Shown here one piece after another: positions 1,850 through 24,451 of a stretch of DNA of 64,000 nucleotides. A program made the translations under genes and the position numbers. Source of the stretch: Candidatus Pacearchaeota archaeon UBA92 (GTDB lineage Archaea; Nanobdellota; Nanobdellia; Pacearchaeales; GW2011-AR1); the NCBI GenBank assembly GCA_002497285.1, contig DANJ01000007.1:205-64204 (forward strand). The letters are read 5' to 3'. Under the pieces are notes generated by a model that worked only from the letters and a program-made list of their open reading frames with translations, was not told where the DNA came from and searched no databases. Positions within the stretch are counted from its first letter, which is position 1. The number at the start of each line of letters is the position of its first letter.

Positions 1850-1866
1850 TTTTATAAAAAGCAAAT

Positions 1867-1875: not shown

Positions 1876-1898
1876 CATTCTAAAAATAGTTTAATCAA

Positions 1899-5415: not shown

Positions 5416-5447
5416 AAAAAATCTTTGCCTTTCTCAATTTAAATATC

Positions 5448-7123: not shown

Positions 7124-7153
7124 AAGATTTTACCAATAAATCAATATATAAAT

Positions 7154-7717
7154 TTAATCATTTCTTTCTATATATCCTACAACTTCAGAAATCTCTTTAG
7201 CGTAAAAATCAGGTTTCACATCAAGACTAATAGACTTATCACCTTCAATCAAATTGTTATTATCTGGAGACTTGAGCAAAATTGTTTTACAGCCCGCCGA
7301 TTTGCCTGCGATAATATCACTAATCATATCCCCCACAAACCAGCTATTGCTTAAATCGATATTATAATCCTTAGCCGCTTGAAATATCATTCCAGCACGA
7401 GGCTTCCGGCATTCACAATTTACCCTATATTTGTTCAAATCAGCATTTGGGTGATGCGGGCAAAAATAAAACCAGTCAATCAAATTGTCAATTTTTTCAT
7501 TTATACAATTATTAATCTCTTTAATTTCCTCCTCATTTGACAATCCTCTCGCAATTATTGGCTGATTTGAGATGACAATAAGAAGAGGAACAAGAGCCTT
7601 TATTTTTCCAAGTGCTTCTTTAACTCCTGGCAAGATTACAATCTTATCTTTTCTGTTTAAACAAGCCCCATTTTCATTTATCACTCCATCCCTATCAAAA
7701 AAAACAGCCTTATTCAT
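7154..7717 (-). CDS. gmhB: D,D-heptose 1,7-bisphosphate phosphatase (HAD superfamily)
   Basis: HAD motif I FFDRDGVIN, Cys-rich CPHHP..CECRKP zinc-site-like segment, motif GDMISDI. Confidence 0.8.
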   Translation of the reverse strand: MNKAVFFDRDGVINENGACLNRKDKIVILPGVKEALGKIKALVPLLIVISNQPIIARGLSNEEEIKEINNCINEKIDNLIDWFYFCPHHPNADLNKYRVNCECRKPRAGMIFQAAKDYNIDLSNSWFVGDMISDIIAGKSAGCKTILLKSPDNNNLIEGDKSISLDVKPDFYAKEISEVVGYIERND

Positions 7718-8509: not shown

Positions 8510-9967
8510 ATGATGAGATTTAACAGATTGTCTAATAAGCAATTGTTGATTATTACCTTAATCTTGCTTGCATTTTTGGCAATCTGTACGAAATACATCG
8601 GAGGAATAGATGTGCACGATTATGCAGACGTAGCCAAATTTTTTGCAGGAAAATACTCTGCAGATATAAGGTCCTCTCACAGCATGTTATATAGTTTTAT
8701 TCATGTACCCTTTCTAATTATCTTCAATAGTTTCCTCATAATGAAGATTACAAACCTGCTTTGGCTAGCCTTAATTATTCTAAGTTTATACTATATTAGC
8801 AATAAAGATCGAAGAACTCTCTTGTTGGCTATTACTTCTCCTATAATTTGGTATATGGGTCCCTGGATAAGCCCTATACAACTCGCAGCTTTATTCTTTC
8901 TATGGGGATTTTTCTTTATGAATAAATTTGATAAAACAGAGAAGATAAAATATTTGGTTTTATCCGGAATATTTATAGGACTTGCATGGGCAACTTGGAA
9001 CACAGTTTTTTTCATTCTTTCCTTCTTAATTATCTCTTTCTTTTACGGGAGAAATATAAATCACCTTATAATTTTCTTATTTTTTGTCACAGTAGGACTT
9101 TTACCGATTTTGATATTTGATCAAATATTTTTCGGTTTTTTTCTTTATAGTACAATTAGACATGTTATGGCTAATCTAACTGTTTTTCTGTATGGTAGCA
9201 TTTATCCAGGAGTAGTTCAAATCTTAAACTCTTGGGCAAATTACCTCTCTTTCTTGCTAATGCTTCCCCTATTCTCATTTATCCTATTCAAAAAAGACTT
9301 TTTTGTTCATAGAAAAAGGCAAGTCATTTTCTTAACCCTTGCGACACTATTCTTTCTGATAAACCCCCAAGTAAGATACATAATGTTTCTTTGGCCAATC
9401 TTTTTATTATATTTACCAAAAAATCTAACTGAAAAACAATTTAAAATTCAACTATCTCTATTTATTTTGTTAAGTATTATAGTTACGATTCCATATGTAA
9501 TTCAAATAAAATACACAACAAACGCAGCAGATTTTGATACGGGAATAGCAAATTTTGGAAATTGGCATTTTAGTAGTGAAAGTAGAAATGCAGTAATCTC
9601 TAATGATCTAAATAGTATTGCAAAAGACTATCCAAACGAAGTCTTTCTTGTTGGGAATGATATGGAAGATTATGCAGGTTTAGCACACATCTATTGGGGC
9701 GAGGATATAAAAGAATTTGTCAGCGAGCAAGATTATAACCTTTATTTAGCAAATAAAAGCACAATCTTTGAAAAAATACTAACTTTCACTCCAAAAATTC
9801 AAGATAGGCGACAAATTTGGATAGGAGGCGGATTAGAAAAGAATGAGAATGATGCAACAGATTACACCTCAATAATATATGGGATTGGTGTTGATAAGCC
9901 CCTAGAAGCAGATGGTTTTGAGCTAATCCAGAGATATAACTTACTCTACCTGTCTAAGAAATCTTGA
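8510..9967 (+). CDS. Polytopic membrane protein, GT-C-like glycosyltransferase candidate
   Basis: About a dozen hydrophobic segments in the first ~340 aa, an acidic first loop (DVHDYAD), and a soluble C-terminal domain. Paired with the upstream GT2. Confidence 0.5.
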   Translation: MMRFNRLSNKQLLIITLILLAFLAICTKYIGGIDVHDYADVAKFFAGKYSADIRSSHSMLYSFIHVPFLIIFNSFLIMKITNLLWLALIILSLYYISNKDRRTLLLAITSPIIWYMGPWISPIQLAALFFLWGFFFMNKFDKTEKIKYLVLSGIFIGLAWATWNTVFFILSFLIISFFYGRNINHLIIFLFFVTVGLLPILIFDQIFFGFFLYSTIRHVMANLTVFLYGSIYPGVVQILNSWANYLSFLLMLPLFSFILFKKDFFVHRKRQVIFLTLATLFFLINPQVRYIMFLWPIFLLYLPKNLTEKQFKIQLSLFILLSIIVTIPYVIQIKYTTNAADFDTGIANFGNWHFSSESRNAVISNDLNSIAKDYPNEVFLVGNDMEDYAGLAHIYWGEDIKEFVSEQDYNLYLANKSTIFEKILTFTPKIQDRRQIWIGGGLEKNENDATDYTSIIYGIGVDKPLEADGFELIQRYNLLYLSKKS

Positions 9968-10569
9968 TTATTAAATAGGCCAATCAATTTAAATTCACCC
10001 AATCCATCTTTTTTTTCATATTTCAATTCAATTAATGAGCAGTTGTCCACTTTAATTTTAAATATAGAGTCATAAAGACTAAGACCAATAAGGTTTCCAA
10101 CAAAAACCTTTATGAAAATGCTATGTGAGACAATAACAATTTTCTTATCCGTCTCTCCATATTTTTCAACTAGACTTTTTGCAAAATCTTCTGTTCTAAT
10201 TTTCAAATCTTCTAAACTCTCTCCATTCAATGGTTTTCTATCTTCAAAATTACCCTTCAGGACTTTCCAGTTTATTTCAGAATTCTTCTTGCCAGTGAAA
10301 TCTCCATAATCCTTTTCTCTTAATTTAGGAGAATATTCAATTTCAGTATCTAATTCAGAGCTTATTTCTTTTGCAAGTATTTTACACCTAGGCAAGTCAC
10401 TTGAAATTATAATGTCTATTCCAATAACTTTAGTTTTACTAACTAATCCATGCATCTGCTTAATTCCAAGTTCTGAAATTCTTCCATCGTCAAATTCAGG
10501 ATATGAGCCATGGGTTATGTCTTTCGCATTATATTCTGTCTGAGGATGTCTCACAATAAACAGTTTCAT
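9946..10569 (-). CDS. Histidine phosphatase family protein (phosphoglycerate mutase-like)
   Basis: N-terminal RHPQTEYN (RHG-type catalytic motif) and downstream VSHS segment, 207 aa. Confidence 0.7.
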   Translation of the reverse strand: MKLFIVRHPQTEYNAKDITHGSYPEFDDGRISELGIKQMHGLVSKTKVIGIDIIISSDLPRCKILAKEISSELDTEIEYSPKLREKDYGDFTGKKNSEINWKVLKGNFEDRKPLNGESLEDLKIRTEDFAKSLVEKYGETDKKIVIVSHSIFIKVFVGNLIGLSLYDSIFKIKVDNCSLIELKYEKKDGLGEFKLIGLFNNQDFLDR

Positions 10570-10669
10570 AATCTGATGGTGTTTAATCCATTTAAAGATT
10601 TTTTGATTGCCTTTTAAGTCTGTAATTGTCCTTAGTAAACTATTTAAAACCGGGGTTTTTTAGCACTTA

Positions 10670-12445
10670 ATGAAGGCAATAGTTCTTGCTGCAGGCGCTA
10701 ACGAAATATCTGGAATTTCAAGCAAAAATATTCCAAAATGTCTTATAGAAATAGGCGAAAAAACTCTTCTTGAGCGCCAGATAGACATTCTAACCTCATG
10801 CGGAATTAGTAAAGAAGACATTTTGGTGGTAATCGGAGAAGAAGGAGAAGCCTGGTCAGAAGAAAACAGACAGAAAGTTAAAAATTTACATAAAAATGTA
10901 CTAATTAATACAAAAAATTTAGAAACGGGGAATAGCCATTCTCTATGGCTCGCATTAAGGGGAATCAATGAAAACGTAATTTTTCTTGATGGAGACCTGT
11001 TCTTTAGCAAAGAAGCAATAAACAAGTTACTAAACTCAAGTCATTCTTCTGCCCTCTTGACTACAAATGAAAAAACGCCTCAAAGGGGGAATCTTGTTTT
11101 AGTAAAAGGAGACAGGGTTCTTGGCATAGGTCCAAATTTTGAGACCGATAGAGTTTATACGGGAATAGCCAAATTTGGTAGAGATTTTCTGCAGAAATTT
11201 AAGGAAGAAATGGAAAGTAAAGATTATTCGAAAACTAATTTAGATGTACCGATTTATCAAATCTGTTTCAATAACTTTATTCATAATGTCGACCTCTATG
11301 ACTTTAAGATAAAAGATAGTTTTCTGAATGGGGGTTCATTTGCAGTAACCAAAATATTAGAAAAGAAAGAGGGCCAATCAGAAAAAAACCTGAAATTTGT
11401 TAGGAAAGAAGCTACAGAAGATAAAGAAAAACTAATCAACGAAGCTAAGTGGCTTATAAATCTACCCAAAGATTTAAAGAATCATTTTCCAGAGGTTCTA
11501 AATTACAATTTAGAGGGAGATCATGTTTACATGGATTTGAAGTACTACCCATATAAAAGTCTTAGAAGATCTTTAATGTCTGGAGAAATCGATAAAACAA
11601 AAGCAAAGGAAATATTGAGTAAAGTTTTTGATTTTTTGTTTGAAAAATTGTATACCAAAGAAATTAAGAATTATGAAAAAGATTTTGTAAACAAGGTTTA
11701 TTTTGACAGAATTTTTGATAGATTAGAATTATCTAAAAAAAAGTCAAATATATTCAGAGAGATAATAGATAAAAAAACACTAAAAATAAACGGCAAGGAG
11801 TTTTCAAATATAAAACCATTAATTAGCTCTTTAAAAAGTGAAAAAGATTTATTAGACGCATTAAATCCAACCAGATTAAGTTTGCTCCATGGAGACCTTC
11901 ATTTTGATAACGTTCTAATAGATAAAGAAAATCCAGAGAAGTTTATTTTAATAGACCCACGAGGTAAAATGTACGGGGGCGGAGTAGGTGGAGACTATAC
12001 CTACGATTTAGGAAAAGTTTATCATTGTTTGAATGGGTTATATGATTTTATCCATGAGAATAAATTTGATTTATCAATAAACAATGATTTGGATGATTTA
12101 AATGCAAACTTTAAGATTCAAAGATCTGTAGAACTTGACCAATACAAAGGAGTTTTATCAGGCCTTCCGACACTGTTTAACAAATATGATCTTTTGAAAG
12201 AAGATAAAAATTGGAAGATAAGGGCTAGTTTTTCCGAAGTTGCACATTTTTGTAGCATGGCTCCATTTCATATCAAGGGTGCAGGAGATGAAAAGATTGC
12301 TTTGGGAATTTATCTAAGGGGAGTCATGCTTCTTAATCAGTTTGCTGAAAGTTGGCAAAAAGATAATTTCAAGTTCCGATTAATAAACATAAACACCCAA
12401 AAAGATTACGAAGAAGCCTCAAATTTTGCAAAAGAAAATGACTAA
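10670..12445 (+). CDS. Fusion protein: nucleotidyltransferase domain (LicC/IPCT/MobA-like) plus APH/choline-kinase-fold kinase domain
   Basis: The N-terminal ~230 aa resemble NTP transferases (MKAIVLAAG...PKCLIEIG), but the G-x-G-x-R loop is degenerate (GANEIS). The C-terminal half has kinase motifs LLHGDLHFDNVLI (H-x-D-x4-N) and LIDPRG. Confidence 0.7.
   Translation: MKAIVLAAGANEISGISSKNIPKCLIEIGEKTLLERQIDILTSCGISKEDILVVIGEEGEAWSEENRQKVKNLHKNVLINTKNLETGNSHSLWLALRGINENVIFLDGDLFFSKEAINKLLNSSHSSALLTTNEKTPQRGNLVLVKGDRVLGIGPNFETDRVYTGIAKFGRDFLQKFKEEMESKDYSKTNLDVPIYQICFNNFIHNVDLYDFKIKDSFLNGGSFAVTKILEKKEGQSEKNLKFVRKEATEDKEKLINEAKWLINLPKDLKNHFPEVLNYNLEGDHVYMDLKYYPYKSLRRSLMSGEIDKTKAKEILSKVFDFLFEKLYTKEIKNYEKDFVNKVYFDRIFDRLELSKKKSNIFREIIDKKTLKINGKEFSNIKPLISSLKSEKDLLDALNPTRLSLLHGDLHFDNVLIDKENPEKFILIDPRGKMYGGGVGGDYTYDLGKVYHCLNGLYDFIHENKFDLSINNDLDDLNANFKIQRSVELDQYKGVLSGLPTLFNKYDLLKEDKNWKIRASFSEVAHFCSMAPFHIKGAGDEKIALGIYLRGVMLLNQFAESWQKDNFKFRLININTQKDYEEASNFAKEND
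10733..10879 (+). repeat. 147-bp near-identical tract, copy 1 (partner 15795..15941)
   Basis: By direct comparison, 146/147 nt are identical to 15795..15941. The single difference is GCC vs ACC (Ala/Thr). Flanking sequence of the two paralogs is strongly diverged. Confidence 0.9.
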
Positions 12446-13292
12446 AGTACTACTAACCGGAGCTGATGGTTTTTTAGGGAGTAAGATTTTTGAGGATTTT
12501 AGCAGAGATTACGATGTTTATGGAACAAGTAGAAATACAAACACTGAAAGAATTTTTTCTCTAGACCTAAGAAATCCTGAAGAAATTAAACGGTTACTTG
12601 AAAAATTACAACCTTCAATACTTATCCATGCTGCTGCCCTTGTCGATGTAGACAAATGTGAAAAAGATAAAGATCTTGCTTATCAGGTAAATTACAAGGC
12701 TACAGAAGAAATTGCAAAATTATGCGGAGAGTTTGGAATAAAAATGATTTATCTCTCAACAGATTATGTTTTTTCAGGAAATGAACCCTCTTATTCAGTA
12801 AATTCCAAGCCAAATCCTATAAATTATTACGGAGAAACAAAATTAATGGGAGAAGAAGCAGTCAAAAAATTTGTTACGAATTATGCAATCATAAGACCAA
12901 CAATATTGTATGGTTCTATTTATACAAATAAGAAAAACTTTGTTTTAGACACAATTTCAAAAATAAAATCTGAAAATGAAATAATTCTAGACAACAAAAG
13001 AGTAAAGTATCCATTACTTATAGATGACGTTTCTAAAGCAGTAAAAAAAATAATAGACTCCAATTTTACAGGTCTAGCTCATTTGTCTGGTCCATCCGAA
13101 GTCACCAAATATGATTGGGGGATAAAAATAGCAGAAGTATTCTCCTTGTCTTTAGAAAAAATTAAGGGAAAGAACCTCAACGAGACTAATAGGCCCTTTA
13201 AAGTCAAATTTGAAGACAACTACATAAAAGCTTTAAACCTTGAAGAAGGACTAAATTTAATCAAAAACAAAGTTAAAAATGAAAATAATTAG
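12438..13292 (+). CDS. NAD(P)-dependent sugar nucleotide reductase/epimerase, RmlD-like (dTDP-4-dehydrorhamnose reductase family)
   Basis: LLTGADGFLGS Rossmann motif, STDYVFSG and YGETKLMGE (Y-x3-K) signatures. ATG at 12438 preferred over the tracked TTG at 12426. Confidence 0.7.
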   Translation: MTKVLLTGADGFLGSKIFEDFSRDYDVYGTSRNTNTERIFSLDLRNPEEIKRLLEKLQPSILIHAAALVDVDKCEKDKDLAYQVNYKATEEIAKLCGEFGIKMIYLSTDYVFSGNEPSYSVNSKPNPINYYGETKLMGEEAVKKFVTNYAIIRPTILYGSIYTNKKNFVLDTISKIKSENEIILDNKRVKYPLLIDDVSKAVKKIIDSNFTGLAHLSGPSEVTKYDWGIKIAEVFSLSLEKIKGKNLNETNRPFKVKFEDNYIKALNLEEGLNLIKNKVKNENN

Positions 13293-13650
13293 GAGAAACG
13301 AAGTGCCTGATGTGGATAGAAATGGTTACATTATAAAGCGATTACTCACTTCTCCTTTCCAGATTCATCCTAAAGATGTCGGTTTTTACGAGACTTCAAT
13401 ACCCAAAGGGGGCAAATGCAAAGAGCAATGGCATAAGGAGTCTTATGAATCAGTCTATTTTTTGACAGATGGAGAAGCAAAGTTAAAAGGAGAAATTTAT
13501 GAATTTAAGAAAGGGGATTTAGTCTTTCTCGAGCCCGGAGAAAAGCACGAATGGCTTGCCTTGAAAAATGAAGTGGTTTTATTTGCAATAAGATTTCCTA
13601 ACCTTCTAAATGATAAATATACAACGGAGGATTCAGAAGATGAATCTTAA
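13279..13650 (+). CDS. Cupin domain protein
   Basis: 123 aa with a cupin-like beta-barrel pattern (..ESVYFLTDGEAKL..GDLVFLEPGEKHEW). Overlaps the upstream gene by 14 nt. Confidence 0.6.
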   Translation: MKIIRRNEVPDVDRNGYIIKRLLTSPFQIHPKDVGFYETSIPKGGKCKEQWHKESYESVYFLTDGEAKLKGEIYEFKKGDLVFLEPGEKHEWLALKNEVVLFAIRFPNLLNDKYTTEDSEDES

Positions 13651-14380
13651 GGACAAAGTAGCTGTAATCAGCGGAATTAGCAAAAGATTTGGTTCTTCAA
13701 CTGCATATCTTTTTGCAAAAGAAGGGGCAAGTTTAGTCTTAATTTCAAGAAACACAGAACTAACAAATAAGATTACTGAAGATATTAGATTTAATGGGGG
13801 AAAAGCAATATCTATTGCCTGCGATGTCACAAAAAATGAAGAAGTCGATAAAGCAGTAGAAGAAATAAAAAGAGTTTACGGAAAAGTAGATATCCTCTTT
13901 AACAATGCAGGAGGAAAGTACACAAAGAGACAAAAAATGCACGAAATGTCTTCAGATTTTTGGGATGAAGTGATAAATACAAACCTAAAGAGTGTATTTG
14001 TCCTGTCAAGTAAAATTATACCTTTAATGAAAGAAGGAGGTTCAATAATAAATATTTCTGCAGCCCACAAAACTCTTTTAGATAGCAATACTGCTTATGC
14101 TGCCGCGAAATCAGGAATTGTTGGACTAACAAGAAATTTAGCAAGAGAACTTAGAGAATCGAATATCAGGGTCAATTGTATAAAACCCGGAGTTATAAGA
14201 AATGACTTTAATAGTCAGAATTTAACCAAATATACAAACAAAGTAAAAAGAAAAGGCAATTCTGAAGATGTTGCTTTCGCAGCCCTTCATCTTGCATCAG
14301 ACACTTCTTCATGGACTACGGGGCAGACTATAACTGTCGATGGGGGAGAAGAATTATTCTCTGAAATGGAAAATGAATAA
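13640..14380 (+). CDS. Short-chain dehydrogenase/reductase (SDR) family oxidoreductase
   Basis: VISGISKRFG glycine-rich loop, NNAG, Y-x3-K (YAAAKSG). ATG at 13640 is preceded by GGAGG at 13626-13630. Confidence 0.8.
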   Translation: MNLKDKVAVISGISKRFGSSTAYLFAKEGASLVLISRNTELTNKITEDIRFNGGKAISIACDVTKNEEVDKAVEEIKRVYGKVDILFNNAGGKYTKRQKMHEMSSDFWDEVINTNLKSVFVLSSKIIPLMKEGGSIINISAAHKTLLDSNTAYAAAKSGIVGLTRNLARELRESNIRVNCIKPGVIRNDFNSQNLTKYTNKVKRKGNSEDVAFAALHLASDTSSWTTGQTITVDGGEELFSEMENE

Positions 14381-15005
14381 AAATTTTGTGATTATGATGA
14401 CTGGATACACTGCTTCTGGAAAAAGCACGACTGCAAGAACAATTTCTAAATGCCTTGGAACCAAAATATACCATTCGGCAATTATCAGAAAAGAGTTAGG
14501 TTTTGACTTTTCAGAAGAAGATGCGAAAAATGATTTTTTTGACCTTACCTCTCAAAAAAGAACAGAAATGGATAAAAAGGTTTATGGTGAGATGTTAAAA
14601 AAATTAGAATTAAGCTTATCAAAGAATGAAAATGTCGTTTTAGATGCAGGTCATTTTTTTCAATGGCAAAGAGAGAACATATCTCAAGTATTAAATAAAT
14701 TCGATTGCGAACTCTTCATTGTACAAACGGTCTGCCCAGAAAAAGAAATAATCAGAAGGCTTAAAAATAGAAAAAATAATTTTTCGAAGTCTGCATTAAA
14801 TGAAACCCCCTCAATCAAAGCATACTTTTCATCAAAAGAAGTCATGATTAATCCAGAAGTTGATGAAAAATCAAAGAATAAAACATTTATAATCTGCTTC
14901 AATACTTTATCTGGAGAGATAACTACAGAAAATAATTCAAAAAATGAAAATCTCTCAAAAATAATCGGAGTTTTAAATGAAAATAATAAGATTCGTAGAA
15001 GTTAA
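14373..15005 (+). CDS. P-loop kinase-like ATP-binding protein (AAA_33/gluconate-kinase-like)
   Basis: Walker A MTGYTASGKST close to the N-terminus when started at ATG 14373 (8-nt overlap with the SDR stop). About 210 aa. Confidence 0.55.
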   Translation: MNKNFVIMMTGYTASGKSTTARTISKCLGTKIYHSAIIRKELGFDFSEEDAKNDFFDLTSQKRTEMDKKVYGEMLKKLELSLSKNENVVLDAGHFFQWQRENISQVLNKFDCELFIVQTVCPEKEIIRRLKNRKNNFSKSALNETPSIKAYFSSKEVMINPEVDEKSKNKTFIICFNTLSGEITTENNSKNENLSKIIGVLNENNKIRRS

Positions 15006-15330
15006 AATACAGGAAAGGCCTGATGGAAGAACAGTAAGAAATCTTCTTCAGAAAGAGTTGGACATGGATGTCTCAGGTCTGCAGATGCTCTACGTAACTC
15101 ATCCCCATGGACTGGAAGAAAGACAACATTCTCATGACCACTCTTGCGAAATTCTATATTTCTTAGACAAAGCAAGATACAAAATAAACGGACAGGACTA
15201 TTTGCTAAACGAAAACGATGTAGTTTTGTTTGAACCAGGGGACATTCATGGGGCCATTCCGATTGATAACGAGACGAGAATTATAGTCTTCCAAAGTCCA
15301 ATAATCTCGGATGATAAAAAGTACCACTAA
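14977..15330 (+). CDS. Cupin domain protein (metal-binding HxH type)
   Basis: HSHDHSCEILYFL..GDIHGA cupin motifs. Shares the MKIIR start with the cupin at 13279. Confidence 0.6.
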   Translation: MKIIRFVEVKIQERPDGRTVRNLLQKELDMDVSGLQMLYVTHPHGLEERQHSHDHSCEILYFLDKARYKINGQDYLLNENDVVLFEPGDIHGAIPIDNETRIIVFQSPIISDDKKYH

Positions 15331-15386
15331 ATAACTAAAAAATTCTGAATATAAATCTTTATAAATGATTTCTTTTCTCTAATTAA

Positions 15387-15692
15387 ATGAGCGAAGAAAG
15401 AGTAAAGCCCCAAGGCATAGAAGATAAGATTAGCAGAGTTGAATCCTTACTCCGAGAAGTTGTTTTAGATAGATATACCATAGATACTCACCCACATAAA
15501 CCGTGGATAACTCTTACACTTAAAGATACGGGCACAAAAGCAATTGTTCTTTATCCAATGGTTGATGTTATTGCTGTTTACGATAAAGACTCTACATTTC
15601 TTGCTAATGAAATCTCTGATCAGTATAGACAAAGTATCGGGGATATTTCTATCAGAGGAAGGTTTGGCAAAGAAGCAAATCAGGAGCATTAG
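15387..15692 (+). CDS. Hypothetical protein (101 aa)
   Basis: The ORF is in operon context. I recognise no motifs. Confidence 0.4.
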   Translation: MSEERVKPQGIEDKISRVESLLREVVLDRYTIDTHPHKPWITLTLKDTGTKAIVLYPMVDVIAVYDKDSTFLANEISDQYRQSIGDISIRGRFGKEANQEH

Positions 15693-15734
15693 TCTTCTGA
15701 AAAGTTTTAAAAAAGCCTAATTCAGATAAATTAT

Positions 15735-16454
15735 ATGAAAGCAATAATTTTAGCAGCAGGCATTGGAAAAAGACTTGGTAATATAAGCCTTGTCCCAAAA
15801 TGTCTTATAGAAATAGGCGAAAAAACTCTTCTTGAGCGCCAGATAGACATTCTAACCTCATGCGGAATTAGTAAAGAAGACATTTTGGTGGTAATCGGAG
15901 AAGAAGGAGAAACCTGGTCAGAAGAAAACAGACAGAAAGTTTTCAAAATATCTGGAAAAGGCAAAATAATAATAAACGATAAAAATGTAGAACTAAATCA
16001 TTGTTATTCATTTTGGCTCGGGTTACAGGCATCAAATGGGGACGAATTTGTATGTTTAGATGGGGACAGTTTTTTCACTAAAGAACTTTTGGAAAAAGTT
16101 GTTCATTCTGATTTTGATTCTGTTCTTTCAACAAGAAAAGCTCTACAAGGGGAAAAAAAGAAGAGGGTCTTAGTAAATGAGGGTATTATAAAGGAAATAG
16201 GAAATGAAGTTAATTCTGAAAGGATATATGTTCCAATCCTTAAAATAGGGGCTGATTTTTCAAAAGCGCTTAATGAGAAGATGAAGTCAGAAAAATATTT
16301 TGACCTCGCATTAGATTCTCCCATAAATGCAATATGTAATGAATATCCAATCCATAATTTGGATATCCCTGAATTGAAGGGAGAAATTAGTTTCTTAAAC
16401 ATAAACACTCCAGAAGAATATAATTTAGCAAAATCTCTTATTTTTTCATCTTAA
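15735..16454 (+). CDS. Nucleotidyltransferase (LicC/IPCT/MobA-like, stand-alone)
   Basis: Canonical MKAIILAAGIGKRLG...PKCL NTP-transferase loop, 239 aa. Paralog of the N-terminal domain of 10670..12445. Confidence 0.75.
   Translation: MKAIILAAGIGKRLGNISLVPKCLIEIGEKTLLERQIDILTSCGISKEDILVVIGEEGETWSEENRQKVFKISGKGKIIINDKNVELNHCYSFWLGLQASNGDEFVCLDGDSFFTKELLEKVVHSDFDSVLSTRKALQGEKKKRVLVNEGIIKEIGNEVNSERIYVPILKIGADFSKALNEKMKSEKYFDLALDSPINAICNEYPIHNLDIPELKGEISFLNINTPEEYNLAKSLIFSS
15795..15941 (+). repeat. 147-bp near-identical tract, copy 2 (partner 10733..10879)
   Basis: 146/147 nt identical to 10733..10879. Confidence 0.9.
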
Positions 16455-16498
16455 TATCGGTCAAAAAAGTTTATATATCATACATCTATTATAAATTA

Positions 16499-18553
16499 AT
16501 GACTACACGGAGAAGCGAGCTCTCAGCAGAAACACGTACAGCCAGAGAAGTTAGTGACCGATTCAAAAGTTTATTCGTTTTACAATCAGCTGACAACCCT
16601 CCTATTGTTTATACTAGAAGGGGAGACACACCGAGAGTCCTTTTCGGTTATTTTAACGCTCTTGAGGAAGGATTCATTCATCCAGGTCTTTCGGTTTTGG
16701 GTGGAATGATGAGAGACCATGGCATAGACCACGAATTATTCGACACAAGTTTTTGGAGAGATGAAAGCTTACCAGTAGCAGAAAATGCAAGGCAGATAAG
16801 AGAAAGGATGGGAGAATTCAAGAGAGTTGAGGGCTATGATCCGGAGAGAAAACCAGTAAACATTAGAGAAAAATTCAGAGAACATGTGGAAAGATTCAGA
16901 CCAGATTTAATTGCACTTGGTTTAACAAGTTTTGAATTTGAAGAAGCCTTGAACTATGTGACTCCAGTTGCAAAAGAATTCGGAATTCCTGTTATGGTTG
17001 GAGGACCACATGCTACAGTAGCTCCAGATAAAGCAATCTTACATCCCGGAGTAGATCTGGTTTGTATAGGCGATGGAGAATTGCCTTTGTTGTCTACTAT
17101 AAGGGGTATAAATCAAGGAAAGAGTGTAAGCAATGTCCCAGGATTATGGCTTAAAGATAGAGAATCTGGAAATGTCTCAAAGAACCCAAGAGGGAAAGGC
17201 ATAGAACATTTAGATGACCTGCCTCTTCCAGATTGGGATATGTTTGATTCAAGGCATAGAGTTAGACCCTTCGAAGGTCAGCTCAAAAATTATGCATATA
17301 TCGAAATAAGCAGAGGATGTCCTTTCAAATGTTCTTACTGTATCCAACCTGTTTTACATGAGATCCCTGGAGATGATAGTAGCAATTACAAATTTCATAC
17401 TGCTGAAAACATCATCTCACGAGTTGTTGCCATGAAGGAAAGATTTGGATTTAATCACGTCCAGTTGATAGATGAGAATCTTCCAACGATGCCTCTAAAA
17501 GATTTAGAAGAGATAGGTAATTTATGGGAAAAACACGTTAACCCAAATGGAGACGTCACGATATTTACGATGAGCAGACCAGAATACCTTGTCAGAAAAC
17601 TTTCAACAGGTAAATGGATTGACGATAATGGGGGTGTAATCTCTTCCGGAAAAGCAGAAATATTGAAGAGGATGGGCGTAAAAATGATTGCTATCGGAGC
17701 AGAATCCGGAAGTGAATGGCTTAGGGAAAATGTTCTTCGCAGGCCAATGCAGCCGGGAATTTTAGAAGCAGCATCAAGAGTTCTAAAAAATGTAGGAATC
17801 AAAACCTCTTTGTATAATATTATGGGTTTTCCAGAAGAAACAAGAGAGATGGTACTTGAAACAATAGATCAGCTAAGAAGAATTTCGCCAGAAAAATATT
17901 CTGTAAGATTTCTTACTCCTTATCCTGGAACTCCCATAAGGGAATATGCAATCCAAAGAGGATTTATAGAAGAAGATTATGAAAAAAAACGTGCTACTTC
18001 ATTTCTTCATGAACCTGTTTTAGAAACTGATGGAAAATCAACAATAACTGGCGGAGTTCATCCTACAAAAGCAGAACTTCTAAAATTAAGAGAATTGTTT
18101 GGAGTTTATGGGTATAGCACTTCCGGAGGATATGATCCAGAGACTCAAAAAATGGTGGGTATGTGGAAAGTTATAGAACTTGCCGAAGATAGGGGATTAT
18201 CAAAAGGAAATTCAGAATTACAAAATATGGTTCATCAAGCTTTCGCCACTGCTCGAGCAAACAGATCTGAAGATGAAGATTCTCATAGACCAGATTTAGA
18301 TACTCGAACCATTGGATCCGAAGATATCCCTTGGGCAAATGGAGACGCAAGATACTTTATAGGGCATTCAAAAGCGCTTCTTCCAGTAGTTCAGTTAGCC
18401 GCAGGGTTAAGTTACGCAGAAAGAACTACAGGTTTAGCGGATTTAGTAAGGACTGGTTTCATGGAGGATTACGAACAGAGACAAGGAAGAGCAATACAAT
18501 TAGACGAGAGACAACAAGATAGAATAGGCATTATGACTTCAGGTAGAGGCTAA
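16499..18553 (+). CDS. Cobalamin-binding-domain radical SAM protein (class B-like) with unassigned N- and C-terminal extensions
   Basis: B12-binding-like Rossmann segment (RPDLIALGLTSFEF..PVMVGGPHATV..DLVCIGDGE). Radical SAM motif CPFKCSYC at nt 17318-17341. 684 aa, with markedly higher GC than its neighbours. Confidence 0.75.
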   Translation: MTTRRSELSAETRTAREVSDRFKSLFVLQSADNPPIVYTRRGDTPRVLFGYFNALEEGFIHPGLSVLGGMMRDHGIDHELFDTSFWRDESLPVAENARQIRERMGEFKRVEGYDPERKPVNIREKFREHVERFRPDLIALGLTSFEFEEALNYVTPVAKEFGIPVMVGGPHATVAPDKAILHPGVDLVCIGDGELPLLSTIRGINQGKSVSNVPGLWLKDRESGNVSKNPRGKGIEHLDDLPLPDWDMFDSRHRVRPFEGQLKNYAYIEISRGCPFKCSYCIQPVLHEIPGDDSSNYKFHTAENIISRVVAMKERFGFNHVQLIDENLPTMPLKDLEEIGNLWEKHVNPNGDVTIFTMSRPEYLVRKLSTGKWIDDNGGVISSGKAEILKRMGVKMIAIGAESGSEWLRENVLRRPMQPGILEAASRVLKNVGIKTSLYNIMGFPEETREMVLETIDQLRRISPEKYSVRFLTPYPGTPIREYAIQRGFIEEDYEKKRATSFLHEPVLETDGKSTITGGVHPTKAELLKLRELFGVYGYSTSGGYDPETQKMVGMWKVIELAEDRGLSKGNSELQNMVHQAFATARANRSEDEDSHRPDLDTRTIGSEDIPWANGDARYFIGHSKALLPVVQLAAGLSYAERTTGLADLVRTGFMEDYEQRQGRAIQLDERQQDRIGIMTSGRG

Positions 18554-18571
18554 ATTTAAAAAAGTGTTTAA

Positions 18572-19315
18572 ATGAAAGAAACTTACTCAGAGTTTAGAAA
18601 GACTCAACAGGATTACGCCAAAAAACATAATTACGGGTTTGGCATCATCAAAAATGCAACCTTCGAATCAGCGATTTTTATCGCATACTATCTTAGAAAC
18701 ACATTCATAACTGCCAATATTATTACTACATTGAATCTTCTATTATGGCTCATTCTGCCTTTTTTATTTCTTAAAGGAACAATATCTCTTGCTATTTGGT
18801 CTATTGTTTTAATGATTCTCACAAATTATTTGGATTTCATAGACGGAGTTTTTGCGCGAGTTCAAGGAACACAGTCAAGAGGGGGAGGGTATTTTGACTC
18901 CTTTGTACATGCAGTCACACTTCCAATAATTATGACTTGTTTCGGATATTATTCTTATTTACAATCCGGACATTTCTATGATATTTTTACAGGTTTAGCA
19001 ATAGGTTTGTGGTATCCTTACTTCTTCTTATTTGAATCAATGGCTGTATTTGTCTTAGTTCATAATCCCAAACCTATAAAATACAAAATGGATAACTTAA
19101 GTGTTAAAACCAAAAGCAATAAATCCAGTCCATTAAACCTAATAAAACGGATAATCTCTCGGATTTACGGACCTCCAGAACTATTCTGGGTTCTTTTAGT
19201 CGTTGTGCTTCTGGGAATCACACATTACTATCTCTTAATATTTTCTATCATTGCAGTTCTTTCAGTTCTGTACAAATTCTACAACAATTATAAACATCTG
19301 AGAAAGATAAGATAA
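18572..19315 (+). CDS. CDP-alcohol phosphatidyltransferase family protein (non-canonical fourth motif residue)
   Basis: Multi-pass membrane protein with DFIDGVFAR-x8-GGYFDSFVH (nt 18833-18910), matching D-x2-D-G-x2-A-R...G-x3-D-x3-(D) except His at the last position. Confidence 0.75.
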   Translation: MKETYSEFRKTQQDYAKKHNYGFGIIKNATFESAIFIAYYLRNTFITANIITTLNLLLWLILPFLFLKGTISLAIWSIVLMILTNYLDFIDGVFARVQGTQSRGGGYFDSFVHAVTLPIIMTCFGYYSYLQSGHFYDIFTGLAIGLWYPYFFLFESMAVFVLVHNPKPIKYKMDNLSVKTKSNKSSPLNLIKRIISRIYGPPELFWVLLVVVLLGITHYYLLIFSIIAVLSVLYKFYNNYKHLRKIR

Positions 19316-19498
19316 TCAAAACAAACTATAAATAAAAGGACTCAATGCAGAGCTCTGTCCGAATATTATCAATATACCTACTAAAACGATCATGATTATA
19401 ATTGGAGTAAGCCACCATTTCTTCCTGATTTTCATATAACTCCAAAATTCTCCGATCATACCCTTATTGGTGCCTTCCATTTTAAAGCCAATTTTCAA
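19316..19498 (-). CDS. DUF5989/SxtK-like small membrane protein
   Basis: 60 aa. The FWSYMKIRKKWWLTPIIIMIVLVGILIIFGQSSALSPFIYSLF pattern matches my memory of the DUF5989 consensus (..RKK.WLLPII......G.......S...PFIYTLF). Confidence 0.6.
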   Translation of the reverse strand: MKIGFKMEGTNKGMIGEFWSYMKIRKKWWLTPIIIMIVLVGILIIFGQSSALSPFIYSLF

Positions 19499-19500
19499 GT

Positions 19501-20619
19501 TTATTTAAACTTTTCTTTTTCTGAAAATATATTAACAATCTTGTTCGCAACAATATCATTACCCAAGCCATTTAAATGTGCAAAATCAATATAAACGTCC
19601 CTCTTTTCTTGAGAAAAGACGTTTGAAATATCATAAAAATTAATTTCTTCATTTATCTCTGGAATTTTAGGATAGGTTTCCAAGTAAAGAGGTTTAACAT
19701 TTTCCAAGATTACCGATTTTTCTCCATCTGTAAGTGGCTTATCTAAGTAGATTATTGGTTGCCAGAAAAAGTAAGTCTTAAAACCATATTCTTTTTCAAG
19801 CGATTTCACAATTCTTAGGTTTTCAAAATAAACATTCACAATCTCATCACCAAGTTTTTCATTTTCAGCAGATTTGTCTTCTTTACCCTTGAAAATTCTT
19901 TTACTAATGCCTCTTATTATTGTCATCGTATCACTATAGTAAATGTATCCTCCCAAATTTAATCTGTCTTTTTTATTGAATTCGGCTTTTCTGTTAGCCA
20001 CATTTTGAGGTAATCCTGCTTCATTATTTTGAAAAGCAGAATAAACTTCATTTACACCATCATAAAAAATTACATAGTCAGGGACATTTCCATTTCTAAG
20101 TTCTAACTCAAGTCTTACTATTTCTTTAGTATTTTCATATCCAGAAACTCCAAAGTTTGTAACTTCTACTCTAACTCCTTGATCACATAGGTCTTTGGAC
20201 ATCAAAGAAGCAATAGTGTTTTCATCACCTACTCCTCCAAATGCAGTAGACCCTCCCAAGACAAATATTTTAATAGCACCAGGTCCAGAACAATCATTAA
20301 TAGTTTTCCTAAGTGAATTCTCATCAGTATTCATAAAATTCCCTGTGAAATTTGGCTCTGGAAGATATTCTATATATGGACTGTATATTGCTTGCAAGGA
20401 AGTTACTTCATCTAAATAACTATTAGCTACAGATTTTGAAGAAAATGCATCGTAGTTTATTTGAGCACCACTCCCATAATAATACCAATTAACAAAGATG
20501 CCAGAAAAGAATTCTAGGACTATAAGCAGAATTACAATAACAAACAGATTCCAAAGAGCAAAAGTAATCACATTATGTGTAGTCCTTAAAATGCGCCTAA
20601 TCCTTGGCATATTTTTCAC
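19501..20619 (-). CDS. Membrane-anchored SGNH/GDSL-fold hydrolase or acyltransferase-like protein
   Basis: N-terminal TM segment. SGNH-like blocks LGGSTAFG (Ser), YDGVNE (G-x-N) and DFAH (D-x2-H). Confidence 0.6.
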   Translation of the reverse strand: MKNMPRIRRILRTTHNVITFALWNLFVIVILLIVLEFFSGIFVNWYYYGSGAQINYDAFSSKSVANSYLDEVTSLQAIYSPYIEYLPEPNFTGNFMNTDENSLRKTINDCSGPGAIKIFVLGGSTAFGGVGDENTIASLMSKDLCDQGVRVEVTNFGVSGYENTKEIVRLELELRNGNVPDYVIFYDGVNEVYSAFQNNEAGLPQNVANRKAEFNKKDRLNLGGYIYYSDTMTIIRGISKRIFKGKEDKSAENEKLGDEIVNVYFENLRIVKSLEKEYGFKTYFFWQPIIYLDKPLTDGEKSVILENVKPLYLETYPKIPEINEEINFYDISNVFSQEKRDVYIDFAHLNGLGNDIVANKIVNIFSEKEKFK

Positions 20620-22369: not shown

Positions 22370-22370
22370 T

Positions 22371-22616
22371 TTAAAATTGCCTATAATATTCCTCCATTTT
22401 TTTCTTTCCAAGGTTAAAATCGAGCCAATAAGTGCCCTTACTAGCTTCTCCCTCTAGAAACTTCTTTTTTCCAATTTTTCCTATTACAGAAGTAATGCCC
22501 ACGCCAAAGATATAAACAATAGTTAAAAGAATAGAATTGATAACAATTCCAATATTCTCTCCAAAAGCCTTTTGACCCTTCTTAAATCCTATAAAAAAAT
22601 CCTTAAACATGCTCAT
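22371..22616 (-). CDS. SxtJ-like small membrane protein, C-terminal-half equivalent
   Basis: 81 aa with a hydrophobic hairpin followed by GKKKFL...TYWLDF......YYRQF. This resembles the C-terminal part of SxtJ-family proteins as I remember them. Confidence 0.45.
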   Translation of the reverse strand: MSMFKDFFIGFKKGQKAFGENIGIVINSILLTIVYIFGVGITSVIGKIGKKKFLEGEASKGTYWLDFNLGKKKMEEYYRQF

Positions 22617-24379: not shown

Positions 24380-24451
24380 CTAATCTTAAAATTTTCTAAG
24401 TATATAACTCCCTATAGATAACTTTAAGAATAACCCCTATTGTCTTTTATT

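Follow-up and report, generated by a model that had tools for sequence, protein, structure and literature searches.

RmlD and RmlC together make the sugar donor that a glycosyltransferase uses and do not supply a phospho-alcohol, and DIPPS belongs to the CDP-alcohol phosphotransferases and has an acceptor that is soluble. Anomeric sugar kinases of the APH fold are known, namely NahK, AmgK and MTR kinase. The radical SAM enzyme AprD4 works with the reductase AprD3, and in the fosfomycin-type route the reductase and cupin steps are those of FomC and HppE. In line with the original prediction, no characterised pathway with the gene set described here was found in NCBIfam or in the accessible, searchable literature. 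The window (the whole 64-kb stretch of DNA that was analysed) has ten ORFs listed between positions 10670 and 19315, all on the plus strand and tightly packed, and the features in and around them are as follows:

9946..10569, minus strand: histidine-phosphatase gene (His_Phos_1), divergent from ORF1
10570..10669, no strand: divergent intergenic region of 100 nt, between ORF1 and the minus-strand His_Phos_1 gene
10670..12445, plus strand: ORF1, nucleotidyltransferase (NTase)-APH kinase fusion, 591 aa (Pfam, NCBIfam)
12438..13292, plus strand: ORF2, RmlD-like NAD(P)H-dependent reductase, an extended SDR (PF04321, E = 8e-57)
13279..13650, plus strand: ORF3, cupin A, 123 aa (Pfam; fused to an RmlD-like protein in locus L002)
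13640..14380, plus strand: ORF4, classical short-chain dehydrogenase/reductase (SDR), FabG / glucose-1-dehydrogenase-like
14373..15005, plus strand: ORF5, P-loop kinase, AAA_33 / 6PF2K-like
14977..15330, plus strand: ORF6, cupin B, 117 aa (canonical metal site H51, H53, E58, H91)
15387..15692, plus strand: ORF7, putative orphan gene, 101 aa (ORF call)
15735..16454, plus strand: ORF8, stand-alone LicC/IPCT-like NTase (signature GIGKRLG...PK intact)
16499..18553, plus strand: ORF9, class-B (B12-domain) radical SAM enzyme, 684 aa (C274xxxC278xxC281)
18572..19315, plus strand: ORF10, divergent CDP-alcohol phosphotransferase-family membrane protein (motif D88xxD91GxxAR-x8-G-x3-D109-x3-H113)
19316-19498, minus strand: 60-aa ORF directly abutting ORF10 (0 nt from its stop)

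When starts were chosen by N-terminal conservation with homologues (ORF2 12438, ORF4 13640, ORF5 14373, ORF6 14977), the predicted overlaps of 8, 14, 11, 8 and 29 nt and gaps of 56, 42, 44 and 18 nt were reproduced exactly, and both the divergent gap and the 0-nt convergent junction at 19315/19316 were present. All ten domain assignments were likewise recovered using Pfam and NCBIfam, with ORF7 an orphan that has no family in either, lacks TM segments and is without homologues in any of the related loci. The ten ORFs are a real operon in an arrangement beyond chance, because at least six independent loci contain the gene set in rearranged form and the same ten-gene region is called as genes on the public record, where NCBI contig MNXG01000018.1 is identical to the window. 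GC3 of the ten genes is uniform (0.23-0.38) and therefore no gene looks recently imported. Two AT-rich TATA-like boxes lie in the divergent gap (TTTAAA at 10591-10596 and TTTAAAA at 10643-10649), each ~24 nt from its flanking start codon, and going by the archaeal TATA consensus they may act as promoters; a sigma-70 scan gave 33 sites against 32.5 expected. The L001 counterpart of the 60-aa convergent ORF matches PF19451 (DUF5989). For the His_Phos_1 gene the best NCBIfam model is the alpha-ribazole phosphatase CobC (85 bits, below cut-off), and the gene occupies the place of HAD phosphatases in sister loci. It is a candidate phosphatase partner of the operon, judging from its position and from L002, L169 and L181, which carry HAD domains or genes.

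Neighbourhood comparison of related loci showed that the co-conservation that had been anticipated holds for most of the operon genes. Eight of the ten (NTase-APH kinase, RmlD-like reductase, cupin A, SDR, P-loop kinase, cupin B, second NTase and class-B radical SAM enzyme) make up a cassette that occurs, with shuffled gene order and 35-62% identity, in at least six other Pacearchaeota/Nanoarchaeota-type loci, namely L002/3, L006/7, L008, L107, L169/170 and L175/176 (Pacearchaeota GCA_016181895.1). ORF4 is 59-62% identical to its counterparts in L002 and L175, and no PDB relative of ORF5 was found by sequence. The steps of the pathway are tied together by gene fusions: NTase-APH kinase in the window, L008, L175 and L181; an ORF5-type kinase with a canonical NTase in L002, L008, L107 and L169 (NTase-P-loop kinase in L002 and L008, NTase-P-loop-HAD in L169); RmlD-cupin A in L002; and NTase-RmlD-PRTase in L006. 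In the unrelated locus L181, genes for NTase, RmlD, cupin, NTase-APH, P-loop kinase and HAD have a divergent CDP-OH_P_transf gene as their immediate neighbour. No radical SAM gene lies within 10 kb there, which fits the radical SAM enzyme being an optional tailoring step and not part of the core.

ORF1 consists of an NTP_transf_3 domain (residues 1 to ~200), with LicC (1JYK) as best PDB match, followed by an APH/FN3K-fold small-molecule kinase (residues ~210-591). The kinase assignment was borne out by an AF2 model (pLDDT 87) with Foldseek matches to APH(3') and FN3K, and by an intact active site in which the Lys, Glu, HGDxxxxN and Asp are invariant. The GxGxR signature of the fused NTase is degenerate (AGANEIS) but is kept in ORF8, and therefore the simple kinase-then-fused-cytidylyltransferase reading of ORF1 is doubtful in this genome. 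ORF8 is probably the active (cytidylyl)transferase; its PDB matches are 4JD0, LicC and IPCT, and its nearest characterised relatives, LicC and the inositol-1-phosphate cytidylyltransferase, both act on non-anomeric phosphoesters. Against the IPCT/DIPPS model ORF8 scores 60 bits (cut-off 580), and nucleotide specificity is not readable from such scores since all of them lie far below the family cut-offs. A 147-nt tract of ORF1 (10733..10879, plus strand) is 99% identical to 15795-15941 inside ORF8, outside of which these NTase paralogues share about 35-40% identity; it is a tract of gene conversion between the two.

Membership of ORF10 in the CDP-OH_P_transf family, as predicted, was supported by Pfam, NCBIfam and its motif. 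The closest NCBIfam models are AIPS (44 bits, cut-off 180), PIPS and DIPPS (19.5 bits, cut-off 580), and a His replaces the fourth motif Asp, the presumed catalytic base and Mg-2 ligand (PMC6506517). That ORF10 is a housekeeping archaetidylinositol-phosphate/serine synthase was rejected on the AIPS score and the extreme rarity of this type of protein. Its two closest relatives (60-65% identity) occur in other gene contexts, and it accompanies the cassette only in contigs of 94-100% identity and, very distantly, as an L181 protein that shares 28% identity with it over 72 residues and has Val as the fourth motif residue. The transferase had been proposed as an integral pathway gene; it falls outside the conserved core, and six sister loci have soluble sulfatase-like and phosphodiesterase-like genes in its place.

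We give a probability of roughly 0.5 to an uncharacterised pathway in which a nucleotide-activated, modified sugar or sugar-alcohol phosphate is attached to a membrane-bound acceptor. This is favoured by the operon packing, the recurrence and fusions of the cassette, the intact kinase and radical SAM sites, the island setting, the proximity of ORF8 to LicC/IPCT and of ORF10 to the AIPS/PIPS/DIPPS models, and the CDP-OH_P_transf neighbour in L181. Counting against it are the lack of co-conservation of ORF10, the contexts of its nearest relatives and its His at the presumed catalytic-base position, together with the resemblance of the RmlD-like reductase and cupin to an RmlD and RmlC pair, model scores too low to show nucleotide specificity, the likeness of the radical SAM enzyme to non-methylases and the ORF1 NTase lacking GxGxR.

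It is possible, though unlikely, that the cassette makes an epimerised, reduced (rhamnose-like) and possibly C-methylated NDP-sugar for an ordinary glycosyltransferase, with the APH kinase and NTase salvaging a free sugar in the manner of AmgK/MurU or NahK and ORF10 a mere neighbour serving lipid head-group synthesis or another role. ORF2 reaches 190 bits on the RmlD equivalog TIGR01214, just below the cut-off of 224, has RmlD and MAT2B as PDB matches and is a paralogue of the true RmlD-RmlC fusion elsewhere in the window (41719-43161, minus strand), whose domain order is that of the L002 fusion. A GT1 gene adjoins the cassette in all sister loci, six of seven of which have no CDP-OH transferase, and ORF1 weakly matches the NCBIfam MTR kinase and MurU models. 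However, the cassette contains no 4,6-dehydratase, neither cupin matches the RmlC family PF00908 as the true RmlC of the window does, and the conserved NTase is closest to enzymes of non-anomeric phosphoesters; a CDP-OH transferase also stands beside the cassette again in L181, and ORF10 follows ORF9 by only 18 nt. Cupin A conserves only H52, E57 and H90 and therefore has a 2-His-1-Glu type site. ORF2 and the cupins favour RmlC/RmlD-type NDP-keto-sugar chemistry at least as much as a simple alcohol.

The class-B architecture predicted for ORF9 was confirmed by an intact CxxxCxxC and a confident fold; a C-terminal helical extension of ~145 aa is present only in its 'long' relatives. Methylation, also predicted, was not established, since ORF9 resembles the non-methylases AprD4 and OxsB and the non-radical methylase TsrM about as well as the C-methylases MgmA, CysS and TokK. 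An improbable alternative is that ORF9 performs an AprD4-like radical dehydration, or an HpnJ- or OxsB-like ring contraction or carbocyclisation, on a nucleotide-linked sugar, and that a keto-deoxy or cyclitol intermediate is finished by the RmlD-like reductase to give a CDP-cyclitol or CDP-deoxy-sugar for IPCT/DIPPS-like transfer. Among the NCBIfam models HpnJ ranks second for ORF9 (93 bits), and the best matches in both sequence and fold include AprD4 (59 bits; TM 0.69 when normalised to AprD4). Every locus with a radical SAM gene also has the RmlD-like reductase and cupin A, making the three an invariant trio, and IPCT and DIPPS/AIPS are the best-matching models of ORF8 and ORF10. Against this, RmlD, cupin, NTases and kinases are all retained in L181 although no radical SAM gene lies within 10 kb, and therefore the reductase does not depend on a radical SAM product, the three C-methylases match about equally, and no inositol-phosphate synthase was found within the window.

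A soluble product, either a phosphodiester compatible solute or a small metabolite comparable to the di-myo-inositol phosphate made by IPCT/DIPPS, is very improbable: IPCT/DIPPS are among the best family matches of ORF8 and ORF10 and a phosphatase gene adjoins the operon, but the DIPPS-model scores of both are tiny, and the operon and all its relatives lie within glycan islands that also hold flippases, glycosyltransferases and AglB. Within the window, a single protein-glycosylation island spans 4.8-64 kb and has AglH and AglB at its end; besides AglB and an AglH-like GT4 it contains two Wzx-like flippases and numerous glycosyltransferases. A fosfomycin-like route, in which a CMP-type activated phosphonate would undergo Fom3/PhpK-like radical SAM methylation and reductase and cupin steps before transfer to a glycan, is close to refuted and was rejected because no PEP mutase (nor phosphonopyruvate decarboxylase) was found among the Pfam-scanned ORFs of the 64-kb window or within +/-10 kb of related loci, with every phosphonate-family score far below cut-off, even though the NTases weakly match Sden_1164 and the radical SAM enzyme the PhpK and Sden_1168 P-methyltransferase models (33-67 bits), the PDB matches of ORF1 include the NTase of the PntC-type fusion 6PD1, sister cassettes are accompanied by sulfatase- and phosphodiesterase-like genes and Fom3 acts on a CMP-linked substrate (PMC8158854).

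Of the phospho-alcohol transfer originally predicted, the kinase, the radical SAM class, the transferase family and the co-conservation of most genes stand; ORF10 as a core gene is not supported, methylation is not established and the reading of the fused NTase of ORF1 as a cytidylyltransferase is doubtful. In the pathway that we prefer, a sugar or polyol would be phosphorylated by the APH-fold kinase and/or the P-loop kinase, and a phosphatase may trim the product, as in kinase-phosphatase-nucleotidyltransferase routes. ORF8 would then join the phosphate ester to a nucleotide, most likely CMP. On the nucleotide-bound unit, the SDR, both cupins and the RmlD-like reductase would carry out oxidation, isomerisation and reduction, and the radical SAM enzyme would tailor it further, most likely by C-methylation. 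In the last step the His-variant ORF10 may pass phospho-X on to an acceptor anchored in the membrane, either a dolichol-linked glycan or a lipid, and free nucleoside monophosphate; in six sister loci this step would fall to the soluble sulfatase-like and phosphodiesterase-like proteins instead. The host, as foreseen, is a small-genome archaeon, and the eight genes are a conserved 'tailored donor' cassette whose operon sits in a ~60-kb cell-surface island of a Pacearchaeota/Woesearchaeota-type (DPANN) archaeon.

An ORF listing of the window returned ten co-directional plus-strand ORFs between 10670 and 19315 (ORF1 to ORF10), and every domain that the original prediction had assigned to them was borne out by Pfam and NCBIfam: NTP_transf_3 followed by a weak APH match in ORF1, RmlD_sub_bind in ORF2, Cupin_2 in ORF3 and ORF6, a classical SDR in ORF4, an AAA_33 P-loop kinase in ORF5, NTP_transf_3 in ORF8, B12-binding and Radical_SAM domains in ORF9 and CDP-OH_P_transf in ORF10. 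For ORF7, neither a family match (Pfam, NCBIfam) nor a homologue was found. Start codons were chosen where N-termini agree with those of homologues, which puts ORF2 at 12438, ORF4 at 13640, ORF5 at 14373 and ORF6, whose MKIIR start all cupin homologues share, at 14977. Recalculation reproduced the tight packing that had been claimed, with overlaps of 8, 14, 11, 8 and 29 nt and gaps of 56, 42, 44 and 18 nt. The 100-nt gap reported 5' of ORF1 is present, with a divergent histidine-phosphatase gene on its other side, and it holds two TATA-like boxes, each ~24 nt from a start codon, as putative promoter elements. A scan for sigma-70 promoters and intrinsic terminators gave chance-level results only, sigma-70 being the wrong model for an archaeon. 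At the 3' end, the abutting boundary was likewise found, where a 60-aa minus-strand ORF (19316-19498) meets the stop codon of ORF10; its counterpart in the related locus L001 (54 aa) carries PF19451, DUF5989. The same ten genes are called on contig MNXG01000018.1 of NCBI GCA_001872795.1, which is 100% identical to the window over 20.7 kb. GC3 is uniform along the operon, and recent horizontal import of ORF9 (GC 0.39 vs 0.34 for the window) was ruled out, as its GC3 is like that of its neighbours. The genes convergent with the operon are as follows.

19316-22411, minus strand: 60-aa single-TM mini-protein, 372-aa GDSL-like protein and NodU/CmcH-type carbamoyltransferase

The GDSL-like protein has one N-terminal TM segment, and the presence of the carbamoyltransferase suggests that the glycan is O-carbamoylated.

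When the remainder of the window was scanned with Pfam, positions 4.8-64 kb proved to be one glycosylation island, which also contains many GT2/GT1 glycosyltransferases, four PMT_2 genes and two Wzx-like flippases.

Other features of the window
332-446, minus strand: 5S rRNA
1677-1970, plus strand: three tRNAs in a row
4843-7717, minus strand: GmhA, HddA-like GHMP kinase, NTase and GmhB, a complete heptose set (NDP-D-glycero-D-manno-heptose route)
24440-26586, 28658-30029 and 31952-33811: nonulosonic-acid-type genes
40670-43161, minus strand: genuine RmlD-RmlC fusion (480 aa) adjoining an RmlB-like dehydratase
47519-48499, plus strand: GT9 heptosyltransferase, 40 kb from the heptose set
50159-53102, minus strand: RmlA, RmlB and TylC3-like NDP-hexose C-methyltransferase
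61152-63984, minus strand: AglH-like GT4 (polyprenyl-phosphate HexNAc-1-P transferase family) and AglB/STT3 oligosaccharyltransferase, at the island end

The nonulosonic-acid-type set comprises a PseB/CapD-like dehydratase, a DegT aminotransferase, a HisH/HisF-like pair and a 619-aa CMP-transferase-NeuB fusion (CTP_transf_3-NeuB). A heptose pathway is unusual in a DPANN archaeon. Because the AglH-like GT4 and AglB/STT3 close the island, its decorations are probably destined for N-glycans. Inositol-phosphate synthase (MIPS), sulfatase and phosphodiesterase genes were not found in the window scans. ARAGORN gave the middle tRNA (1763-1850) an anticodon of four bases, 'ccta', suggesting an archaeal tRNA that has an intron or is atypical in some other way.

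The best-supported reading of the operon, to which we give a probability of about 0.5, is a four-stage pathway of activation, tailoring and phosphotransfer, the chemistry of which we infer. Kinases would phosphorylate the precursor and a phosphatase would trim it; ORF8 would then nucleotidylate it; the SDR, the cupins and the RmlD-like reductase would perform redox/isomerase tailoring, with further tailoring by the radical SAM enzyme (rSAM) ORF9; and ORF10 would carry out phosphotransfer, the acceptor being membrane-bound and part of glycosylation of the AglB type. This logic of kinase, nucleotidyltransferase and phosphotransferase with nucleotide-sugar tailoring is familiar and is not a new principle.

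Co-conservation was assessed on neighbourhoods obtained from precomputed gene tables and our own tblastn and blastp runs. The expected co-occurrence was seen for most of the cassette (the eight conserved genes, all but ORF7 and ORF10), with the rSAM, NTase, P-loop kinase, RmlD-like reductase and cupin A (ORF3) found together in six loci (L002/3, L006/7, L008, L107, L169/170 and L175/176). Of these, L175 comes from Candidatus Pacearchaeota GCA_016181895.1 and has nearly the gene order of the window. A 'full' form, which also has the APH kinase and cupin B (ORF6), occurs in the window, L002, L008 and L175; of these, only L008 has no SDR. A 'reduced' form, seen in L006 and L169, is without the APH kinase, cupin B and SDR, and here a PurF-type phosphoribosyltransferase domain (purF model 140 bits; no glutaminase domain) forms one protein with the RmlD-like reductase.

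L169:6350-7852, minus strand: RmlD-like-PurF-type fusion
L006:7608-9896, minus strand: RmlD-like-PurF-type fusion

In L169, a HAD phosphatase (DFDGVIT) is joined C-terminally to the NTase-P-loop kinase in one polypeptide. The fusions comprise NTase-P-loop kinase, NTase-P-loop-HAD, RmlD-cupin A, NTase-RmlD-PRTase and NTase-APH; of all the evidence, such fused proteins argue most strongly that the steps belong to a single pathway. In capsule synthesis, PRPP-dependent ribosylation is followed by dephosphorylation (PMC12096443); by analogy, the PurF-like PRTase and HAD of the reduced form hint at a PRPP-derived (pentose) precursor, which is taken as a lead only. In a further locus, L181, an ORF1 homologue (37% identical) has on its flanks genes for an NTase, an RmlD-like protein, a cupin, a P-loop kinase and a HAD protein, a divergent CDP-OH_P_transf gene lies directly upstream, and no rSAM gene occurs within 10 kb. 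Since L181 holds this divergent gene beside cassette-type genes, the association of a CDP-alcohol-type transferase with the cassette arose at least twice, and the rSAM looks optional to the cassette.

The predicted kinase assignment of ORF1 was upheld by an APH-type fold with an intact active site, as seen from homologues and from a structural model. The Pfam APH score of its C-terminal domain is marginal (22.3 bits vs 23.2). In the domain's own numbering, K42, E54, H203-G-D205-xxxx-N210 and D225 do not vary among 21 aligned homologues; they represent the beta3 Lys, alphaC Glu, HxDxxxxN catalytic loop and metal-binding Asp of the bilobal ePK-like fold. The AlphaFold (AF2) model (pLDDT 87) was matched by Foldseek with a probability of 1.0 to APH(3') and FN3K, the top fold matches being aminoglycoside kinases and fructosamine-3-kinase (FN3K) with TM scores of only 0.35-0.57. 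The LicA, choline-kinase, AmgK and NahK models of NCBIfam gave no ORF1 match at E <= 0.01. For the ORF5 P-loop kinase, a sequence search against the PDB returned nothing significant.

ORF8 possesses the GxG(T/K)R(L) signature with the downstream PK and (D)GD metal motif (AAGIGKRLG...VPK...LDGD), and every NTase fused to a P-loop kinase retains GxG(T/K)RL...PK. The NTase domain of ORF1 (window 10670-11300) reads AAGANEISG at the signature site, with no Arg and without GxGxR, and the equivalent position is variable among ORF1-like proteins. As ORF8 and the NTase-P-loop fusions keep the motif that ORF1 lacks, the ORF1 domain may be degenerate or regulatory. The best NCBIfam model for ORF8 is the IPCT/DIPPS N-domain, and its nearest solved relatives in the PDB are 4JD0, LicC, ST0452 and inositol-1-phosphate cytidylyltransferases (matches include 2XME and 4MND); these relatives point, weakly, to a cytidylyltransferase for a non-anomeric phosphate ester. 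LicC (1JYK) was the best PDB match of the ORF1 NTase domain. The two genes also share one nearly identical tract.

10733-10879 (ORF1) and 15795-15941 (ORF8): 147-nt tract, 99% identical, encoding residues ~22-70 of both NTase domains

Outside it, the two proteins are about 35-40% identical, and this difference indicates recent gene conversion between the paralogues.

ORF2 matches RmlD_sub_bind (E = 8e-57) and scores 189.7 bits against TIGR01214, below the equivalog cut-off of 224. The separate, genuine RmlD-RmlC fusion of the window scores 258.7 bits for PF04321 and 213 bits for PF00908. The cupins ORF3 and ORF6 are paralogues, 29% identical, and their profiles, searched against the PDB, matched nothing but small cupins of a generic kind (for example quercetinase and a 113-aa 'mannose-6-phosphate isomerase'), which offer no functional lead. 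In dTDP-L-rhamnose synthesis, RmlC is the 3,5-epimerase and RmlD the 4-reductase. The pairing of ORF2, at 190 bits for TIGR01214, with a small cupin resembles this system, and the RmlD-cupin fusion of L002 has the same order as the genuine fusion at window 41719-43161. Such mirroring favours the main rival explanation, an NDP-deoxysugar route that ends in a glycosyltransferase and to which ORF10 would be functionally unrelated; we judge such a route unlikely, at roughly one chance in four. Unlike the rhamnose enzymes, ORF2 falls under the equivalog cut-off, the operon cupins have no PF00908 match and are about 60 residues shorter, RmlA and RmlB are absent from the cassette, and the cassette NTase is of MobA/LicC and not of RmlA type.

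The class-B rSAM architecture proposed for ORF9 was retained on the basis of its cluster motif, predicted B12-binding domain and modelled fold. C274, C278 and C281 of CxxxCxxC, the cluster motif of the TIM-barrel rSAM domain, are invariant in 24 sequences (PF04055, E = 7e-15), the N-terminal domain is of the Rossmann B12-binding type (PF02310, E = 3e-12), and the AF2 model (pLDDT 83.7) matched OxsB, TsrM, MgmA, AprD4, CysS and TokK about equally. None of the curated methylase models of NCBIfam reaches its cut-off with ORF9, the best model being the uncharacterised TIGR04013 (111 bits vs 251), followed by HpnJ (93), BchE (69), PhpK (67) and AprD4 (47). Since ORF9 resembles HpnJ and AprD4 no less than it does any methylase, a non-methylating rSAM was considered; L181, with its reductase gene and no rSAM nearby, argues that the reductase is independent of the rSAM, and this alternative appears distinctly improbable.

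The closest ORF9 homologues are 43-55% identical and carry Nanoarchaeota or Pacearchaeota names or come from metagenome contigs. The rSAM profile, when run against GTDB genomes and JGI metagenomes, gave, among the matches listed, mostly generic B12-rSAMs of 24-32% identity, only L011 and L107 being close to ORF9. Neighbourhoods of relatives were taken mainly from exact-protein look-ups. The loci L011 (rSAM 43% identical) and L171 and P0040 (45%) are without the RmlD/cupin/P-loop set, and the rSAM clade therefore extends beyond this cassette. In L171 and P0040, the rSAM still adjoins an NTase-APH fusion as well as another NTase and a HAD gene, with SIS, ribulose-phosphate 3-epimerase (Ribul_P_3_epim) and GatZ-like genes as other neighbours. 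A helical C-terminal extension of about 145 aa (ORF9 residues ~540-684, window 18120-18553), mostly confident in the model, is found only in 'long' relatives (684-726 aa) and is absent from 'short' ones (about 485 aa), which are otherwise 45-50% identical. Two or three further, distantly related B12-domain rSAM genes, about 23-25% identical, occur in the DPANN glycan islands of relatives, where they adjoin sugar aminotransferases, NTases and dehydratases.

L008:15041-16492 and 20756-21452: further B12-domain rSAM genes
L006:3617-5083: further B12-domain rSAM gene
L175:1-1066: further B12-domain rSAM gene

These archaea may quite generally use class-B rSAM enzymes to tailor sugars.

ORF10 belongs to the PF01066 family by profile (E = 3.8e-9), yet its signature is a variant one, D88xxD91GxxAR-x8-G-x3-D109, with His113 at the fourth position where the family signature (D1xxD2GxxAR...GxxxD3xxxD4, on TM2-TM3) has Asp. 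That fourth Asp (D4) is the presumed catalytic base and an Mg-2 ligand in CDP-alcohol phosphotransferases (PMC6506517). The His is invariant in four close sequences and is the commonest residue (86 His, 33 Asp) among 143 distant relatives with the motif (about 240-290 aa), ten of which were checked and had no curated name or were 'hypothetical', falling below every curated cut-off. Members of the family are polytopic membrane proteins with about 6 TM helices; in ORF10, a crude hydropathy window placed hydrophobic stretches at residues 44-90 and 198-238. In NCBIfam, ORF10 matches the AIPS, PIPS and DIPPS models; a housekeeping archaetidylinositol (AIPS) or serine synthase was ruled out by its 43.8 bits against the AIPS cut-off of 180 (NF040950) and by its extreme rarity. 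A word-indexed search of 5.8 billion proteins found three proteins at E <= 0.001, including the window's own, and when HMMER was run in full against 1.84 billion representatives, only two reached E <= 1e-10, including ORF10 itself.

The expectation that the CDP-alcohol transferase would be a co-conserved operon member did not hold, as ORF10 is linked to the cassette only in contigs that are 94-100% identical; its 60-65% identical relatives sit on short contigs without an rSAM. In six sister loci (cassette-bearing relatives), genes for a soluble sulfatase-family protein (about 430 aa) and a phosphodiesterase-family protein (about 460 aa) stand in place of ORF10. The sulfatase-family protein has Ser for the nucleophilic Cys, and the Arg of CxPxR is absent.

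Sulfatase-family gene at the ORF10 position
L002:2345-3741
L006:12067-13489
L008:12769-14200
L169:12151-13561
L175:8708-9967

In four of the five listed loci, a mini-ORF of 33-43 aa at a conserved position precedes this gene, which is accompanied by a GT1 as well as the phosphodiesterase-family protein; rSAM-SPASM (anSME-like) genes lie near it in L006 and L169.

In di-myo-inositol-phosphate synthesis, a CTP:inositol-1-phosphate cytidylyltransferase (IPCT) acts with a CDP-inositol:inositol-1-phosphate transferase (DIPPS). The operon similarly pairs a LicC/IPCT-type NTase with a predicted membrane protein of the CDP-alcohol phosphotransferase family, and a soluble DIP-like product was considered on that account. 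In contrast to IPCT/DIPPS, ORF8 and ORF10 score 60 and 19.5 bits against NF041135 (cut-off 580) and are unfused with the rSAM gene between them, ORF10 has His for the fourth Asp, the operon has seven extra tailoring/activation genes in a glycan island rather than a solute pathway, and no inositol-phosphate synthase accompanies it in the window as scanned; a soluble product of this kind is very unlikely.

Other systems share parts of the design. With LicA/LicC, Treponema LicCA-CPT and the Kennedy pathway, the operon has in common an NTase domain followed by an APH/choline-kinase-fold kinase in one protein (ORF1) and a CDP-alcohol phosphotransferase downstream (ORF10). It differs in that the ORF1 kinase has no LicA/choline-kinase match and its fold is nearest APH(3')/FN3K, its NTase domain is without GxGxR, LicD is missing, and the reductases, cupins and rSAM would imply a much more elaborate alcohol or sugar. 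Kinase-phosphatase-NTase triads are known from GDP-heptose (HddA/GmhB/HddC) and lincosamide (LmbP/LmbK/LmbO) synthesis. Going by established pathway knowledge and not homology, the cassette may be likened to these, with NTase, P-loop kinase and HAD phosphatase fused in L169, HAD genes adjacent in L002 and L181, a histidine phosphatase adjoining the window operon, and the window's heptose genes as the classical version; the ORF5 kinase is, however, P-loop AAA_33 and not GHMP or PfkB. In Campylobacter, O-methyl-phosphoramidate activation involves the cytidylyltransferase Cj1416 and the P-loop kinase Cj1415, and by this logic a P-loop kinase could phosphorylate a nucleotide-linked intermediate (a PAPS-like donor). 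Both genes are mentioned in PMC11800397. Compared by gene roles only, the cassette would likewise couple an NTase to a P-loop kinase, but it is without glutamine-kinase or amidohydrolase partners.

Fosfomycin synthesis employs the cytidylyltransferase Fom1, the reductase FomC, the class-B rSAM Fom3 acting on a nucleotide-linked substrate and the cupin HppE (PMC8158854, PMC9204698), and the operon similarly joins a cytidylyl 'handle' to a class-B rSAM, a reductase and a cupin. It differs in having no PEP mutase or decarboxylase, and hence no C-P bond, and Fom3/PhpK-type models fit ORF9 no better than those of HpnJ, BchE or AprD4. A phosphonate route, the least probable alternative, was rejected, as no PEP mutase matched among the approximately 66 window ORFs scanned or, for the related loci, in Pfam tables computed beforehand.

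As originally predicted, the gene set does not map onto a characterised pathway: membership tests for the systems compared failed on scores, on a changed motif residue and on missing hallmark genes, and the set was not found in curated families (NCBIfam) or in the open-access literature searched. Within the activation, tailoring and phosphotransfer pathway preferred here, a more specific version can be put forward tentatively, and we think it on balance unlikely: that the cassette makes a new CDP-activated, rSAM-tailored (C-methylated) sugar or polyol phosphate and that ORF10, with His in place of Asp as catalytic base, is the first member of the CDP-alcohol phosphotransferase family found to decorate a lipid-linked glycan. 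If so, DPANN N-glycans or S-layers would bear a teichoic-acid-like phosphodiester decoration, and the sister loci would reach the same end via soluble alkaline-phosphatase-superfamily transferases.

DPANN archaea are uncultivated, host-dependent cells whose surface glycans probably mediate host attachment, and to our knowledge almost nothing is known of the chemistry of these glycans. The cassette represents a compact, conserved and testable enzyme set in these poorly known organisms. It includes an uncharacterised class-B rSAM clade in sugar-nucleotide contexts, and its 'Rosetta-stone' fusions tell which steps are coupled. Working out the pathway could reveal a nucleotide-activated building block not known before, and B12-type rSAM enzymes could gain a new class of substrate. 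In ORF10, the cassette also offers a rare kind of CDP-alcohol phosphotransferase, a His-variant branch, and would test whether the fourth Asp of the family motif is indispensable.
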